DNA of 64,000 bases. Origin: a virus (Duplodnaviria; Caudoviricetes). The stretch spans positions 1 through 64,000 of the IMG/VR virus record IMGVR_UViG_3300009701_000005; one strand, 5' to 3'. Shown here piece after piece: positions 25,712 to 30,147 of this stretch; within the stretch, counting starts at the first letter, position 1, and each line of letters opens with the position of its first letter. Under the pieces are notes generated by a model. That model worked only from the letters and a program-made list of their open reading frames with translations. It ran no database searches and was not told the origin of the DNA. The translations under genes and the position numbers were made by a program.

Positions 25712-25796
25712 GGGACTGTGGCGAAATTGGCAGCCGCATCAGGTTTAAGCCCTGACGCCGCAAGGCGTACCGGTTCGAATCCGGTCAGTCCTACCA
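25712..25796 (+). tRNA. tRNA-Leu(TAA)
   Basis: Canonical type II cloverleaf, loop TTTAAGC, V arm CGCC-GCAA-GGCG, ACCA end. Confidence 0.92.
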
Positions 25797-25831: not shown

Positions 25832-26101
25832 ATGAAACTCATCACCAAGGCAATTCTTACCGGCGTAATTCTCAGTGCTGGTGCCGTAGTTGAAAAGCTA
25901 TTAACTCCAGCAGCAGCATTAATATCCAATAAGACGACAGTTTCACAGTTGGATAATAGTGATGCAGCCTACCTAGCAGTAACCTACCTTGGTAACGGGT
26001 CTGTTCTAGTAAACATCCTTGTTACTGCCGTGGCTTCTTTCTTAATAGTCCGGGTTTGGACTCGTAAATCTAAAAAGGTTGACAAAAATGAAGATCAGTA
26101 A
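25832..26101 (+). CDS. Two-TM membrane protein (SPFH operon partner)
   Basis: gaggt SD before ATG 25832; two hydrophobic helices. Confidence 0.7.
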   Translation: MKLITKAILTGVILSAGAVVEKLLTPAAALISNKTTVSQLDNSDAAYLAVTYLGNGSVLVNILVTAVASFLIVRVWTRKSKKVDKNEDQ

Positions 26102-27026
26102 AATTCGTTTCCTCATGGCCGCGGCAGTTCTTTTCACAACACTTTTGGCAGGATGTACTCAGCCAAAAGCCGTTGATGAAATCAAGATCATCGGCCCTTC
26201 TGACACAGCCTTTCTGGTTGCTTTGGATGGCGACACGCTGAAGAACCAAAACAGCATGAAGTCCGCTGAGTTCCTGGAATCGGCCAAGATCAGTGCAAAA
26301 CGCGTTTTGATCCCTCACAAGATCATCAACACTTGCCCTGACTGTAACGCATGGGATTACAGCCATTACCTGGACGTTCCAACTGCTCAATTGTTCACAG
26401 TTAGCCGTGCCCCAGTGGCAAGGTCTTGGACAAGTTCAGCAACGACAGGCACAAGTGTAAAGAACGAAGCTTTCTCGGTTGAATCCAATGAATCCATCGA
26501 TTTTGATATCGGTGCAACAATTATCGCTCACGTAGCAGAAGCTGACACGGCAAAGTTCCTATACTTGCATTCGGGAAGTCAACTGGAAACAGTGATCGAC
26601 GGTCAAGTGCGTAACTACGTTTCGTCAATCTTGTCCCGTGAAATGGGCTCCCATAACATTGACTGGGATCGTCAAAATAAGAATGCTGTGTTCACTACGG
26701 CTTTCAACGAAACCAAGACCTTCTTTGCAGCACAAGGCATTACAATTGACAGCCTTGGTTTTACTGAAGGCATGACTTACCATGACGCGGCAATTCAAAA
26801 AGCCATCAATGCTAAGTTTGCTGCTGACATGAACGTGCAAATTGCAGAAAAGACTCTGGAAGCGGCCAATCAATACGCCCAGGCCAAAGACGCAGTTAAG
26901 GTTCAGCAAGATATCGAGAATCGTAAGCGTGAACTCGATTTACAAGCAGCGGCTATTGCCCGTTGGGATGGAAAATTGCCGACTACCAATGCAACAAGTT
27001 CATTACCATTCTTGAACTTGAAGTAA
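26088..27026 (+). CDS. SPFH/Band 7 domain lipoprotein
   Basis: Lipobox LAGC, SPFH-like core (GITIDSLGF), coiled-coil, RWDGKLP tail. Confidence 0.7.
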   Translation: MKISKIRFLMAAAVLFTTLLAGCTQPKAVDEIKIIGPSDTAFLVALDGDTLKNQNSMKSAEFLESAKISAKRVLIPHKIINTCPDCNAWDYSHYLDVPTAQLFTVSRAPVARSWTSSATTGTSVKNEAFSVESNESIDFDIGATIIAHVAEADTAKFLYLHSGSQLETVIDGQVRNYVSSILSREMGSHNIDWDRQNKNAVFTTAFNETKTFFAAQGITIDSLGFTEGMTYHDAAIQKAINAKFAADMNVQIAEKTLEAANQYAQAKDAVKVQQDIENRKRELDLQAAAIARWDGKLPTTNATSSLPFLNLK

Positions 27027-27073
27027 ATGTAGTTCGTTCAGCTAATCAACTAACAACCAAAGCGAGGTCCTTT

Positions 27074-27280
27074 ATGCTTAGGAAAAGGCCCAGGTTTAAA
27101 AGTAGGTCTGGCACCGAGGGGCGCTCTAGATCAAGATCTGGAAAATTTTTTGGAAGAACCTATAACGGCAGCACGTCTAAAGATATCAGCATTTCTTCTT
27201 CGGGATGGAGCGTTGCCGGCTGGGGACGTTTTGTAAGTCATAGCGGTGCCCCCAGTAACACTTATTCCTCATCGGGGTAA
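27074..27280 (+). CDS. Ser/Arg/Gly-rich peptide 1
   Basis: gaggt SD; MLRKRPRFKSRSGTEGRSRSRSG...SSSG. Confidence 0.65.
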   Translation: MLRKRPRFKSRSGTEGRSRSRSGKFFGRTYNGSTSKDISISSSGWSVAGWGRFVSHSGAPSNTYSSSG

Positions 27281-27285
27281 CGGAT

Positions 27286-27498
27286 ATGACCGTGTCTAGA
27301 TATAGGCGAAACTACGTACGAAAATCCAAATCTGGTATGTGGAATAGGACGTATTCCATCTCCAGTATTATATGGAAAACGGTTAGTGGGGGACCACGAG
27401 GGCACGGTACCTCAACTTCGAATTTCTTCACTTACACCACTTCAGGGCGATACTCTCGAGGGATGTCCTTTCTGAGATCTGGAGATAATGCACTATGA
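27286..27498 (+). CDS. Ser/Arg/Gly-rich peptide 2
   Basis: RKSKSG, SISS, TTSGRYSRG. Confidence 0.65.
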   Translation: MTVSRYRRNYVRKSKSGMWNRTYSISSIIWKTVSGGPRGHGTSTSNFFTYTTSGRYSRGMSFLRSGDNAL

Positions 27499-27725
27499 TT
27501 CCTAAACACAGAAGAGATTACGCCAAGAGTCAATCTGGGGTCAGAACTTACAATATAGGCTATCAATATACCTTGGCAGGTTCTGGAATGCTCATGAGGA
27601 TGAGGTCAGAATCTGGTGAAAAACTCCCCGGGCGCATAGCGTGTCGTTATGTGTCAAGATCCGGGAGCCGCAGTAAGCACCTCACTCTTTCAGGTACATT
27701 TGATCAATTTGTTTCCTGGAGGTAG
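27495..27725 (+). CDS. Ser/Arg/Gly-rich peptide 3
   Basis: ATGA overlap; KSQSG, RSESG, SRSGSRS. Confidence 0.65.
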   Translation: MIPKHRRDYAKSQSGVRTYNIGYQYTLAGSGMLMRMRSESGEKLPGRIACRYVSRSGSRSKHLTLSGTFDQFVSWR

Positions 27726-27730
27726 CGGAC

Positions 27731-27964
27731 ATGCTAAACAGATTTAGAAAAATGCATGGCCTAAATAGAACCTTGAGCGGGCAGAGATCGAAAAAGTATT
27801 CCAAATCTGGTGGACTTTCCAAATACATTTCCAGTAGCGGAAAACCTACCTCCTTTAATTCCCTGTCAGGCCTCATCAATAAAGCAGTATCTAGGTCCGG
27901 CGAAATCAGGGATAGGTACTACTCTTATTGTGGAAGACTAGGCCACGTTAAACAAGTTCAATAA
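27731..27964 (+). CDS. Ser/Arg/Gly-rich peptide 4
   Basis: ggaggt SD; TLSG, SKSG, SSSG, SLSG, SRSG. Confidence 0.65.
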   Translation: MLNRFRKMHGLNRTLSGQRSKKYSKSGGLSKYISSSGKPTSFNSLSGLINKAVSRSGEIRDRYYSYCGRLGHVKQVQ

Positions 27965-27973
27965 GGATTTTCC

Positions 27974-28147
27974 ATGTTGAATAAGATTCAAAGTACGCGT
28001 AGTAGAGGCCGATCTTGTATTCATCCTCAGCCCAGGGGAATTAGTAACAAATCATTATCTGGGCAAGGCAATGCAGCCGTATCCCGCAGAGGATTAATAC
28101 CTACAAAAGGATATTCTTTTGGGTATCTATCCCTCTCGGGGGGCTAA
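27974..28147 (+). CDS. Ser/Arg/Gly-rich peptide 5 (57 aa, absent from ORF track)
   Basis: aagga SD; MLNKIQSTRSRGRS...SLSG...SLSGG. Confidence 0.6.
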   Translation: MLNKIQSTRSRGRSCIHPQPRGISNKSLSGQGNAAVSRRGLIPTKGYSFGYLSLSGG

Positions 28148-28266
28148 TTATAGAGCGGCCTCAATGTCAGGCCCAAGAAGTTTTACAAATTCCCGTTTAT
28201 AGTATTTCTAGCAGTCCCAACCGGGCAAATGCCCTTCTCTAACCTAAATTAAATTGGAGCAATACC

Positions 28267-28578
28267 ATGTTGAAAGCACCTCCTCAAGCACAAGTCATTG
28301 ATGTTCCTAACGAAGGCTACATCAAATTTCTCAACAAGCAAGTCGAAATTCGTTGCAATGTCTACATTTACACCGGCATTCTGACGGGTGTAAATGAAAA
28401 GATTCTCGAGTTGGAAAACCCTGCAATCGTATACGAAACTGGCCCTCACGGCGACTCCAAGTACAAGGATGTGCAAGGCATTCCAGGGCCAACGTTCATC
28501 AATATGGGCTTGATCGAATCGGCTAGTTTGTCGTTTAAGACCTACGAGCCATTCAAGGCCAAGCCCGTTGCTCTGTAA
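28267..28578 (+). CDS. Sm/LSm-fold protein
   Basis: FLNKQVEIRCNVYIYTGILTGVNEKILELEN matches Sm1-motif pattern; ggag SD. Confidence 0.6.
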   Translation: MLKAPPQAQVIDVPNEGYIKFLNKQVEIRCNVYIYTGILTGVNEKILELENPAIVYETGPHGDSKYKDVQGIPGPTFINMGLIESASLSFKTYEPFKAKPVAL

Positions 28579-28581
28579 CAT

Positions 28582-28806
28582 ATGGCCATGTTAACCAAAC
28601 GAGCTACGTTGCTAATGTGGAGGTCCTTTTCTGGAATTCACTCTAAGAAATTTAGTGAGACAGAGGGTAAGCTAGGTAGATGTGCGCACTCTACCTCTGG
28701 TCAAGGGGACATATATACCTCTCATACGCGTAAATCTGTTAGCGGCGGGACCCCCTCCACCTACCCAAGGGTTGGCGCAGCTTGGTCTAGTAGACGTAGA
28801 GGATAA
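28582..28806 (+). CDS. Ser/Arg/Gly-rich peptide 6
   Basis: RSFSG, STSG, SVSGG, WSSRRRG. Confidence 0.6.
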   Translation: MAMLTKRATLLMWRSFSGIHSKKFSETEGKLGRCAHSTSGQGDIYTSHTRKSVSGGTPSTYPRVGAAWSSRRRG

Positions 28807-28823
28807 TAAAGAAAGGTAGTAAA

Positions 28824-29042
28824 ATGGGTCAAGCAAATCAACGGGGGACGCCCGAACAACGTCGAAACTTGGCAATTGCCAAGAAGGCTGAGGCACCTGC
28901 TAGCATTCCTCCTGCCACAGTTCGTCACTTGAAGGCACAAGAAATTGCCAGTTGGAATTTGGCAGTGGATAAGAAGAAGCAGGCCAAGGCAAGTCTTCAA
29001 ATCGGCAGTAATATTGCCAAGAAAAAACCAGCATTATCGTAG
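28824..29042 (+). CDS. Basic hypothetical protein (MGQANQRGT)
   Basis: aaggt SD. Confidence 0.7.
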   Translation: MGQANQRGTPEQRRNLAIAKKAEAPASIPPATVRHLKAQEIASWNLAVDKKKQAKASLQIGSNIAKKKPALS

Positions 29043-29413: not shown

Positions 29414-29488
29414 GGGAACGTGATGGAATTGGTAGACATGCCGGGGTTGTACTCGGCCTTACAGGTTCGAAGCCTGTCGTTCCCTCCA
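29414..29488 (+). tRNA. tRNA-like element with 6-nt anticodon loop (isotype undetermined), CCA encoded
   Basis: Acceptor GGGAACG/CGTTCCC, D arm ATG-GAATTGGTAGA-CAT, stem CCGGG/CTCGG around GTTGTA, T arm ACAGG-TTCGAAG-CCTGT. Confidence 0.7.
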
Positions 29489-30070: not shown

Positions 30071-30147
30071 CACCACAGTATCTCAACGGGCTTCTACCCC
30101 GTAGCCGAGTAATTGGATCAATGGGAGTTCGAGTCTCTCCTGTGGTG
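30071..30147 (+). tRNA. D-armless tRNA-Arg(TCT)-like element with long variable arm
   Basis: CACCACAG/CTGTGGTG, anticodon arm ACGGG-CTTCTAC-CCCGT, T arm GGGAG-TTCGAGT-CTCTC; only 7 nt where D arm should be. Confidence 0.6.

Follow-up and report, generated by a model that had tools for sequence, protein, structure and literature searches.

Several described proteins combine an Sm fold with basic low-complexity sequence, or are small Sm-like proteins encoded by phages. In eukaryotes, SmB, SmD1 and SmD3 carry Arg-Gly tails and LSm4 carries an RGG tail. Bacteria encode Hfq, phages encode Hfq-like proteins (Pfam Phage_Hfq, PF23874), and phage T4 encodes the GoF / MotB.1 / Frd.2 family of early proteins, for which an LSm-like fold is predicted and a role on RNA is suspected (PMC12152347). 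Alternating or repeated serine units are found in the serine-rich repeat regions of Gram-positive adhesins, whose Ser-x dipeptide repeats are O-glycosylated, and in the Ser-Gly repeats of serglycin. Here we analyzed a locus of an uncultured phage in which six small genes for strongly basic peptides rich in Ser-x-Ser-Gly motifs surround a gene for a small protein predicted to have the Sm fold. The window analyzed corresponds to positions 1 to 64,000 (64,000 nucleotides) of IMG/VR virus record IMGVR_UViG_3300009701_000005 (Duplodnaviria; Caudoviricetes). The locus is an unusually diverged copy of a gene pair that is present in hundreds of uncultured phages, and that we did not find described in any of the papers, databases or domain libraries searched; the function of the pair can at present only be inferred.

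Six peptide genes around an Sm-like gene

The initial annotation reported five consecutive small basic ORFs and a sixth one flanking an Sm-like gene, and this observation was confirmed: all seven ORFs are present, on the + strand, and are separated by tight junctions (Table 1). GAGG, GGAG, GGAGG or AAGGA motifs are located 6-10 nt before five of the peptide starts. The six peptides (57-77 aa) have pI values of 10.7-11.9 and net charges of +9 to +14.

Table 1. Features of the locus (positions are those of the window)
Feature	Position	Strand	Product	Observations
P1	27074-27280	+	68 aa, pI 11.9, net charge +11	Leader MLRKRPRFKS, the closest to the relatives' leaders; five S-x-S-G motifs; GAGG 10 nt upstream
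P2	27286-27498	+	70 aa, pI 11.5, net charge +11	Stop overlaps the start of P3 by 4 nt (ATGA, 27495-27498)
P3	27495-27725	+	76 aa, pI 10.7, net charge +10	Five SG sites
P4	27731-27964	+	77 aa, pI 10.9, net charge +14	SG at residues 16, 26, 36, 46 and 56, an exact 10-residue spacing; GGAGG 8 nt upstream
P5	27974-28147	+	57 aa as it stands	Cut short by the length of a G6 run at 28138-28143
P5 continuation	28143-28202	+	19 codons in the +1 frame	Contains SMSG; with it P5 would be 75 aa, like its paralogues
Sm-like gene	28267-28578	+	103 aa, pI 5.8	Predicted Sm/LSm fold; phage family marked by the GxLxGVN and IVYETG motifs
P6	28582-28806	+	74 aa, pI 11.3, net charge +10	Starts 3 nt after the Sm-like stop, the position held by the single peptide gene in most relatives

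To test whether the six ORFs could be chance open frames or decaying pseudogenes in a non-coding spacer, we compared the region with shuffled sequences. ATG-ORFs of at least 57 codons cover 98% of positions 27074-28147, whereas the mean coverage in 2000 shuffles was 8.5% and the maximum 64%. The S-x-S-G motif occurs 18 times in the peptides, against 1.9 +/- 1.3 in composition-preserving shuffles (maximum 8 of 5000). The motif is directional: the dipeptide SG occurs 24 times against 10.2 expected, the reverse dipeptide GS only 3 times against 10.2, and S or T sits at position -2 in 22 of the 24 SG dipeptides. The residue x is most often R or L and is otherwise varied (S, K, V and T among others). 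In addition, the glycines have a period of 10 residues (15 pairs at lag 10 against 5.2 expected, z 4.8). No other ORF in the whole 79-kb genome has this signature. Three observations could be taken to favor the chance or pseudogene reading, namely that the gene set behind the protein collection searched held no entry for P4, that P5 is truncated by a homopolymer-length difference, and that the P1 core evolves almost neutrally (see below). However, in view of the shuffling results, of indels that preserve the frame, and of the presence of the same arrangement beside relatives of the Sm-like gene in about 80 loci, we consider this reading very improbable.

The statement in the initial annotation that the genes are divergent in DNA is correct, as only short repeats such as TCCAAATCTGGT recur. 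Its proposal of a frameshifted remnant at 28164-28244 is partly right: the remnant is the +1-frame continuation of P5 and does not extend up to 28244. In a roughly 90% identical phage the G6 run has one G fewer (at 28138), which extends the fifth peptide by 19 residues. The region did not reveal a hidden RNA gene: no tRNA and no Rfam family were found in 27000-29000, and RNA folding was no better than shuffles for the first half (z -0.23) and slightly better for the second half (z -2.35). A scan for promoters and terminators found no more sites than in shuffles, and no RNA data set holding the sequence is listed among public runs. The phage occurs in moss-associated samples. tRNA genes flank the region at 25712-25796, 29414-29488 and 30072-30147. 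All three stop codons end long ORFs (TAA 34, TGA 12, TAG 8), and the standard genetic code was therefore kept.

The predicted Sm-fold protein and its relatives

The AF2 model of the 103-aa protein (pLDDT 89.9) has a helix at residues 17-21 followed by strands at 25-30, 34-42, 46-57, 68-79 and 83-88, in agreement with the Sm fold, which consists of an N-terminal helix and a strongly bent five-stranded antiparallel sheet. Foldseek and VIA-align searches placed Sm/LSm chains on top, with an rmsd of about 2 A over 65-73 residues; the top 50 structural matches are all Sm/LSm chains (Z 9.2-10.2), with Z about 10 to archaeal and eukaryotic Sm chains. A search of a viral structure library returned only uncharacterised Sm-like phage proteins. 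The fold is thus predicted with confidence, but it is not detected by sequence profiles. The only profile match was DUF6897 at E 0.017, below its cut-off, Phage_Hfq reached E 0.11 in only 2 of 23 members, there was no LSM (PF01423) hit, the Hfq threshold was not reached, and a PDB profile search found only SmF at E 0.74. No PHROG match was found either.

The protein belongs to a family with 57 close homologues (E 2e-26 to 1e-7 against 56 other proteins, at 44-61% identity), 309 relatives in IMG/VR and 469 representatives at 50% clustering. The pair is almost absent from cultured phages, with 1 unannotated hit among 50,697 GenBank phage records, and among 185,579 species genomes it appears in 11, all of them metagenome bins. 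No DNA match to the locus was found in GenBank phages. Fifteen alignment columns of the family are invariant. Asn43, in loop 3, is invariant, the residue two positions before it is an invariant Gly, and no Arg, Lys or His column is invariant. A canonical uridine pocket comprises an Asn and an aromatic residue in loop 3 and an Arg in loop 5; the lack of an invariant basic residue together with the profile results makes such a pocket doubtful. The family is acidic (median pI 5.2, mean net charge -2.4). Tandem two-domain relatives exist (proteins P0059, P0069 and P0115), as would be expected for a ring former, although they do not show that a ring is formed.

The initial annotation had proposed that homologues without Ser/Arg-rich neighbors would refute its interpretation, and we therefore examined 85 related loci (designated L and a number). 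Nearly every relative with room beside it has a same-strand small ORF next to it, with a basic leader and a (Ser-Gly/Arg/Trp)n tail, and this ORF often overlaps the upstream stop as ATGA; the interpretation was thus not refuted by this test. Under a strict rule, 66 of the 85 loci had a leader-plus-(S-x)n ORF within 300 nt downstream and 5 had one upstream. Most of the loci that failed this rule lacked flanking DNA or had a mis-extended start; L035 carries a 19-aa stub and L052 a diverged copy. Several loci hold 2-4 copies (L015, L039, L045, L046, L048), and peptide genes upstream of the Sm-like gene, as for P1-P5, are found in L015, L023, L047, L058 and L065. Clustering of 986 neighboring ORFs from 89 loci revealed no recurrent family apart from the Sm-like gene. 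A Pfam scan of 139 sampled neighbors showed mostly DNA-metabolism genes, with recombination and nucleotide-metabolism functions (ERF, YqaJ, SSB, dCMP deaminase, thymidylate kinase). Hence, the nearby tRNA- and ncRNA-rich region to which the initial annotation drew attention is not a conserved companion.

Among 207 family proteins the Sm domain is never fused to a Ser-x tail, nor was any informative domain fusion found, and there is thus no Rosetta-stone support for an interaction. We also folded the natural in-frame read-through of the Sm-like gene into P6, reading TAA as Gly and leaving out the peptide rows of the alignment, which were misplaced on the Sm domain. The Sm domain was unchanged, the P6 leader was modelled as a helix (residues 104-122, pLDDT 59-75) and the rest was disordered; as the output gives no contacts, this model says nothing about docking.

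The strongly opposite charges of the two partners, and translational coupling that would fix their stoichiometry, are compatible with the possibility that the peptides are host-directed and cationic, either Arg/Trp-rich toxins active on membranes, ribosomes or the nucleoid, or self-assembling serine-zipper beta fibrils, with the acidic Sm-like protein as a neutralising chaperone or immunity partner until release. In agreement with this, the x positions of the relatives' tails are 43% Gly, 28% Trp and 27% Arg, a make-up typical of membrane- and nucleic-acid-active peptides, serine at every second position gives a two-faced beta strand, and the two genes are never fused. However, the window's peptides contain only 1.7% Trp and yet are maintained, they have no signal peptide or hydrophobic segment, and the module lies among early or middle DNA-metabolism genes rather than lysis genes. 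We consider this possibility unlikely.

Constraint on the translated peptides

The peptides of the window differ from those of the relatives in that they lack the unbroken (Ser-Gly/Arg/Trp)n repeat built from TCN/AGC-NGG hexamers. In the relatives' arrays GGG makes up 94% of Gly codons and AGG plus CGG 97% of Arg codons, against 14-19% and 29% in control genes, whereas the window's peptides use ordinary mixes (GGG 28%). Ser before Gly is coded by TCT, TCC, TCA, TCG, AGC and AGT. A weaker lag-10 and lag-20 glycine signal is also present in 78 relatives' arrays (z 2.7-3.1). The leaders of the window's peptides align with those of relatives, but sequence similarity between the peptides is not statistically significant on its own. 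BLASTP against the relatives' peptides gave E 3.4, and pairwise BLASTP of the peptides was likewise not significant. With a profile built from the relatives' peptides, P3, P4 and P1 ranked 1st, 3rd and 4th among 297 ORFs of the genome, but only weakly (E 0.03-0.8; P3, E 0.029), and no word-sharing homologue of P4 was found. The link to the relatives therefore rests on position beside the orthologous gene, architecture and composition.

Comparison with the roughly 90% identical phage provided evidence on the level at which selection acts. The indel groups inside the peptide ORFs all net 0 or a multiple of 3 (four in sequencing run X3, which contains the 81.6-kb contig of this relative, and one of -3 in run X4). 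P1 has a -1/+1 pair, P2 a 3-nt in-frame deletion (run X4), and P3 three groups (-6; -2 and -1; +2 and +1), and compensating frameshifts restore the frame within 3-6 nt. The indels that break the frame rule lie between genes or in the G6 run. Despite 19% DNA divergence, the P1 variant keeps its leader and its S-x-S-G sites, including all four SG sites that can be compared. In P6 the leader part (28588-28645) occurs twice and is about 97% identical, while the core (28646-28800) is replaced by unalignable sequence. It should be noted that in P1 18 codons carry amino-acid changes and 8 carry silent changes only, which is close to neutral, and part of each core may therefore be dispensable.

These data bear on the alternative that the functional element is nucleic acid and the ORFs are by-products of a repeated DNA or RNA element ((TCN-NGG)n hexamers, G-rich tracts or repeated SD-like GGAG/AGGT), which would be bound by an Sm-like ring or would act on ribosomes or rare NGG-decoding tRNAs. 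In its favor, x codons in 122 relatives' arrays are almost exclusively NGG, positions 3-4 of the hexamer vary freely while the others are fixed, and the second half of the region folds slightly better than shuffles. However, the window has lost the hexamer repeat and the NGG bias but keeps six open frames with a peptide-level motif, leaders with ATG starts and ATGA coupling are conserved across loci, TCN and AGC serine codons both occur, and only 11 of 122 arrays hold a canonical G3 quadruplex motif. Together with the compensating indels and the absence of an Rfam hit, this makes the alternative improbable, although the NGG-only codons of the relatives are left unexplained and hint at an extra nucleotide- or translation-level layer.

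The conserved leaders and variable cores also raise the possibility that the genes encode leader-plus-core precursor peptides. In this view the leader would be a recognition handle, perhaps held by the Sm-like protein, and the serine-rich cores would be modified at the [S/T]-x-S-G serines (phosphorylation, glycosylation, nucleotidylation or dehydration) by host or distant phage enzymes, or would be decoys that soak up a host Ser/Thr-modifying defence enzyme. The extra leader copy in the related phage, the many tandem paralogues and the sharply defined motif, with S or T fixed at -2 and G at +1, fit this view, and a COOH-NH2 ligase, amidoligase and peptidase C26 cassette follows the module in L088 and L090; COOH-NH2 ligase occurs in 4 of the 139 sampled neighbors. 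However, no enzyme family is a regular neighbor, and there is no cleavage motif between leader and core. Moreover, the only constant partner is a protein of about 90 aa with an RNA-binding-type fold and no known catalytic motif, and in most relatives the core is simple low-complexity sequence, unlike known precursor peptides. We regard this view as unlikely.

Interpretation and comparison with described systems

Together, the analysis shows that the locus is a diverged, amplified copy of a self-contained phage gene pair. One partner is an acidic protein of about 90-100 aa with a predicted Sm fold, and the other is one or more small, strongly basic peptides with a short basic leader (M, 3-6 residues, K/R-rich, usually an aromatic residue near position 8-10) and a serine-rich tail. 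In the window six paralogues have evolved into more complex sequences that keep the leader, the directional [S/T]-x-S-G motif and its roughly 10-residue spacing. The frame-preserving indels and the loss of the nucleotide repeat also show that selection acts on the translated peptides and not on a DNA or RNA repeat, the leaders being conserved while the cores change fast. What the module does is inferred, and only tentatively: the Sm-like protein may assemble into a hexameric or heptameric acidic ring that binds the basic peptides through the leader, the repeated S-x-S-G units, or both, and about one unit per protomer would fit 6-8 units per peptide. The loaded ring, or peptides handed over by it, would then coat or remodel RNA or single-stranded DNA during early or middle infection, somewhat as Arg/Gly tails extend eukaryotic Sm rings. 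Exact core sequence would matter little and composition a lot, which would explain repeat expansion, copy-number change and fast core turnover. Our confidence in this account as a whole is only slightly better than even.

The initial annotation had interpreted the locus as a phage LSm ring with a diversified family of RS-like partner or substrate peptides, serving as an RNA chaperone, condensate or anti-defence module, and this interpretation is supported only in part. The predicted fold, the reality and relatedness of the peptide genes, the frameshifted piece after P5 and the Ser/Arg/Gly-rich peptide genes beside homologues are supported, whereas ring formation, RNA binding, binding of the peptides, condensates and counter-defence are conjectural on present evidence. 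A more speculative and rather unlikely possibility, which the data do not exclude, is that each [S/T]-x-S-G unit docks on one protomer, so that one basic peptide would wrap one acidic hexamer or heptamer. This would be a new kind of peptide-loaded Sm particle, and the fast-changing cores and variable copy number would reflect an arms race with a host target, such as a defence system or an RNA or DNA substrate.

The pairing is unusual in that it joins one of the oldest RNA-handling folds to separately encoded, repeat-based micro-proteins, a class that gene callers usually miss. The literature searches found nothing on this pair. Because the window has shed the nucleotide repeat but kept the peptides, it provides a natural experiment that argues for a peptide-level function and narrows the essential features to a leader plus [S/T]-x-S-G at a 10-residue pitch.

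SR proteins contain runs of Arg-Ser dipeptides joined to an RNA-recognition motif, and the comparison with RS-like tracts is loose, as the unit conserved here is [S/T]-x-S-G and no Pfam domain was found in any of the peptides. The serine-rich regions of adhesins and serglycin share with the peptides serine at alternate positions or Ser-Gly units, which are substrates of serine-modifying enzymes; however, those are long secreted or cell-wall proteins with dedicated glycosyltransferase and export genes, whereas the products here are 40-95-aa cytoplasmic basic peptides with no conserved enzyme nearby. The T4 GoF / MotB.1 / Frd.2 proteins are, like the window's protein, uncharacterised early phage proteins with a predicted LSm-like fold and a suspected role on RNA, but they are a different sequence family, are longer and have extra domains (PMC12152347), and no Ser-x peptide partner is described for them. 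Hfq and Phage_Hfq share small size and the Sm fold with the protein, and a feature-based look-alike search placed a Phage_Hfq cluster at 0.81 and an archaeal LSM cluster at 0.85. However, the signature of the family is GxLxGVN...IVYETG...YKDxQ...ESF and not the Hfq Sm2 motif, and Hfq is not known to have a partner peptide gene. Finally, the eukaryotic Sm/LSm proteins with basic tails likewise combine an Sm-fold core (Z about 10 to SmF, SmE/G, LSm and archaeal SmAP chains) with a disordered, basic dipeptide-repeat sequence rich in Arg and Gly. Here, in contrast, the basic sequence is a separate gene product, often present in several copies, with its own conserved leader and with serine at every second position or [S/T]-x-S-G every 10 residues, and the Sm-like core is acidic and lacks detectable LSM or Hfq profile similarity. 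If the proposed ring-peptide association holds, the module would be a bacterial-virus counterpart of Sm cores with basic tails, built from two genes.

Six small peptide genes around an Sm-like gene

The 79,125-bp IMG/VR virus record, of which the window forms the first 64 kb, has inverted terminal repeats. Five back-to-back small ORFs, designated P1 to P5, lie between an SPFH-like lipoprotein gene and a tRNA-rich stretch, and are followed by a 119-nt spacer, an ORF encoding a 103-aa protein and a sixth small ORF, P6. The peptides are 57–77 aa long with pI 10.7–11.9 and a net charge of +9 to +14, whereas the 103-aa protein has a pI of 5.8. Five of the starts are preceded, at a distance of 6–10 nt, by a GAGG, GGAG, GGAGG or AAGGA motif. 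The positions of these and other features mentioned below are listed in the table.

Positions of the features in the window and in loci of relatives of the Sm-like gene (L numbers denote individual loci)
Location	Coordinates	Strand	Feature
Window	26079-27026		Lipoprotein-signal protein; PHROG 200 (lipoprotein, E 5e-11); weak match to SPFH/Band 7 (E 0.0024, below the cut-off)
Window	27074-27280	+	P1
Window	27286-27498	+	P2; overlaps P3 as ATGA
Window	27495-27725	+	P3
Window	27731-27964	+	P4; SG at residues 16, 26, 36, 46 and 56
Window	27974-28147	+	P5
Window	28267-28578	+	103-aa Sm-like protein
Window	28582-28806	+	P6; starts 3 nt after the preceding stop
Window	28249-28581	-	110-codon antisense ORF covering the Sm-like gene
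Window	28635-28801		Region in which run X3 shows an extra peptide gene
Window	29414-29488		tRNA with an abnormal two-base anticodon call (ARAGORN)
Window	30072-30147		Weak tRNA (34.8 bits) called by Rfam alone, not listed by ARAGORN
L008, L016, L017	3244-3513; 1494-1736; 1378-1665		Examples of peptide arrays of relatives (respectively)
L088, L090	4380-6786; 1460-4599		Peptidase C26/GATase, COOH-NH2 ligase and amidoligase_2 cassette
L027	3254-3676		Repeat peptide continuing into a non-repeat C-terminal part of about 80 aa
L069	3278-3712		dCMP-deaminase-like gene open from within the repeat array in another frame; true start probably just after the array
L072, L021	4058-4435; 937-1143		Other low-complexity ORFs near the module: one a 125-codon Arg/Gly-only frame (also open in other frames), one a Gly-Tyr/Ser-Gly-Asp repeat peptide

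To test whether the small ORFs could have arisen by chance we compared them with shuffled sequences. ATG-ORFs of at least 57 codons cover 98% of positions 27074-28147, while in 2000 shuffles the mean was 8.5% and the maximum 64%. The motif S-x-S-G occurs 18 times in 422 residues, against 1.9 expected from composition (maximum 8 in 5000 shuffles). In addition, SG is enriched (24 against 10.2) while GS is depleted (3 against 10.2), and in 22 of the 24 SG dipeptides S or T is located two residues before. Gly-Gly pairs at a distance of exactly 10 residues are three times more frequent than expected (15 against 5.2, z 4.8). No other ORF of the 79-kb genome has this signature. The region contains no tRNA or Rfam family and is not notably structured as RNA. 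The arrangement noted in the initial annotation is therefore more than chance, and we consider it highly improbable that the ORFs are chance open frames.

The 103-aa protein was modelled with AlphaFold2 using 23 family sequences. This gave a confident model (pLDDT 89.9) with an N-terminal helix and five strands. All top matches among solved structures are Sm/LSm chains, with a Foldseek probability of 1.0 and VIA-align Z values of 9.2–10.2 at an rmsd of about 2 A over 65–73 residues, which covers whole Sm chains. By sequence, however, the protein belongs to none of the Pfam LSM or Hfq families; the only match was to DUF6897 at E 0.017, below its cut-off, and Phage_Hfq reached E 0.11 in 2 of 23 members. 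The family signature is GxLxGVN, IVYETG, YKDxQ and ESF. The family is acidic, with a median pI of 5.2 and 96% of members below pI 7, and has no invariant basic residue. The predicted fold is therefore Sm, whereas ring formation and RNA binding are inferences only. The antisense ORF covering the Sm-like gene has similar open counterparts in 15 loci, and is probably a side effect of the codon make-up of the gene rather than a second gene.

A two-gene module in relatives

The initial annotation had proposed that its idea would be refuted if homologues lacked SR-rich neighbours; the opposite was found. The protein has 57 close homologues, 309 relatives in IMG/VR and 469 representatives in a 1.8-billion-protein library. 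We examined 85 loci. Nearly every one with enough flanking DNA has a small same-strand ORF beside the gene, most often directly downstream and overlapping its stop as ATGA. This ORF has a basic leader (for example MIRGKKQKW or MITKQRRFW) followed by serine at every second position, the intervening residues being almost only Gly (43%), Trp (28%) and Arg (27%). Apparent exceptions were contig ends, mis-extended starts, a 19-aa stub (L035) or a diverged copy (L052). Several loci (L015, L023, L039, L045, L046, L047, L048 and L058) have two to four copies, on either side of the Sm-like gene.

Clustering of 986 neighbouring ORFs revealed no other recurrent family, and the surroundings are mostly recombination and nucleotide-metabolism genes, not structural or lysis genes. 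This is a self-contained two-gene module. In L088 and L090, the two closest relatives with long contigs, the peptidase C26/GATase, COOH-NH2 ligase and amidoligase_2 cassette lies 1–2 kb downstream of the module, and COOH-NH2 ligase also occurs in 4 of 139 sampled neighbours. This could be a peptide-modifying system, but it is not a regular companion. The reading that the peptides are modified or decoy precursor peptides is considered unlikely.

The closest relatives of the window, at 56–60% identity of the Sm-like protein, still have the plain repeat peptide, indicating that this phage lineage has diverged. In the arrays of relatives, GGG makes up 94% of Gly codons and AGG or CGG 97% of Arg codons, against 14–19% and about 29%, respectively, in the Sm-like genes and other ORFs of the same loci, and TCC is nearly avoided among the serine codons. 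The arrays are in effect (TCN or AGC)-NGG hexamers, which raises the question whether DNA or RNA is the functional level. The window answers part of this question, because its peptides use ordinary codon mixes (GGG 28%) and the serine before glycine is coded by six different codons, while the leader, the motif and the spacing are nevertheless kept. We regard a repeat acting at the nucleic-acid level as very unlikely, although none of the readings considered explains the NGG-only codons of relatives. A weaker 10- and 20-residue periodicity of Gly and Trp is also present in 78 arrays of relatives (z 2.7–3.1), and hence the decapeptide pitch may be a family property. Homology of the window's peptides to those of relatives is not significant by sequence statistics; it rests on position, architecture and composition.

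Frame conservation and the inferred function

No RNA data set is listed for this phage, and the evidence of translation comes from a close relative. Public sequencing run X3 contains an 81.6-kb contig that is about 90% identical across the region. Inside the peptide ORFs its indels are −1 with +1 six bases later (P1), −6 (P3), −2 with −1 (P3) and +2 with +1 (P3), and a second run, X4, has a −3 (P2). All of these keep the frame. The other X3 and X4 indels are located between genes (27726, 28238) or in a G6 run near the end of P5 (28138). With one G fewer, P5 reads on for 19 codons through 28202, including another SMSG, and reaches 75 aa like its paralogues. This is the real content of what the initial annotation had noted as a possible frameshifted remnant.

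dN/dS could be estimated for P1 alone. Applying the differences to P1 showed that the leader and all four comparable SG sites are kept, while eighteen codons carry amino-acid changes and eight carry silent changes only. P1 differs by about 19%, against 3.4% in the 174 nt before it. Downstream of the Sm-like gene the relative carries an extra peptide gene: the P6 leader occurs twice (about 97% identical), each time followed by sequence that cannot be aligned, and copy number therefore differs even between close relatives. The pattern is thus one of conserved leader, fast-changing core, variable copy number and preserved frame.

Together, the analysis shows that these are real, selected peptide genes with a constant partner of predicted Sm fold. 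What the module does is inferred. Tentatively, and with less than even likelihood, we propose that the acidic protein forms a ring that binds the basic peptides, and that the complex acts on RNA or ssDNA early in infection. The charges would fit this view, at about −14 to −17 per hexamer or heptamer against +9 to +14 per peptide, as would coupled translation, the 6–8 motif units per peptide, the existence of tandem two-domain relatives and the gene neighbourhood. A fold prediction of the Sm-like gene joined to P6 by read-through gave only a moderately confident leader helix and no contact information. An alternative, in which the peptides are host-directed cationic or fibril-forming peptides and the acidic protein is their chaperone, appears unlikely. 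The interpretation offered in the initial annotation is supported in part, for the predicted fold and the peptide neighbours.

Distribution and comparison with a known LSm-like family

The module is nearly absent from cultured phages, with one unannotated hit in 50,697 records, and among species genomes it occurs only in 11 metagenome bins. Literature searches found no description of this pair. We consider the module to be a kind of system not described so far, and this window to be its most diverged form among the loci examined here. The nearest published item is the T4 GoF/MotB.1/Frd.2 LSm-like family (PMC12152347), which is a different sequence family without partner peptides.
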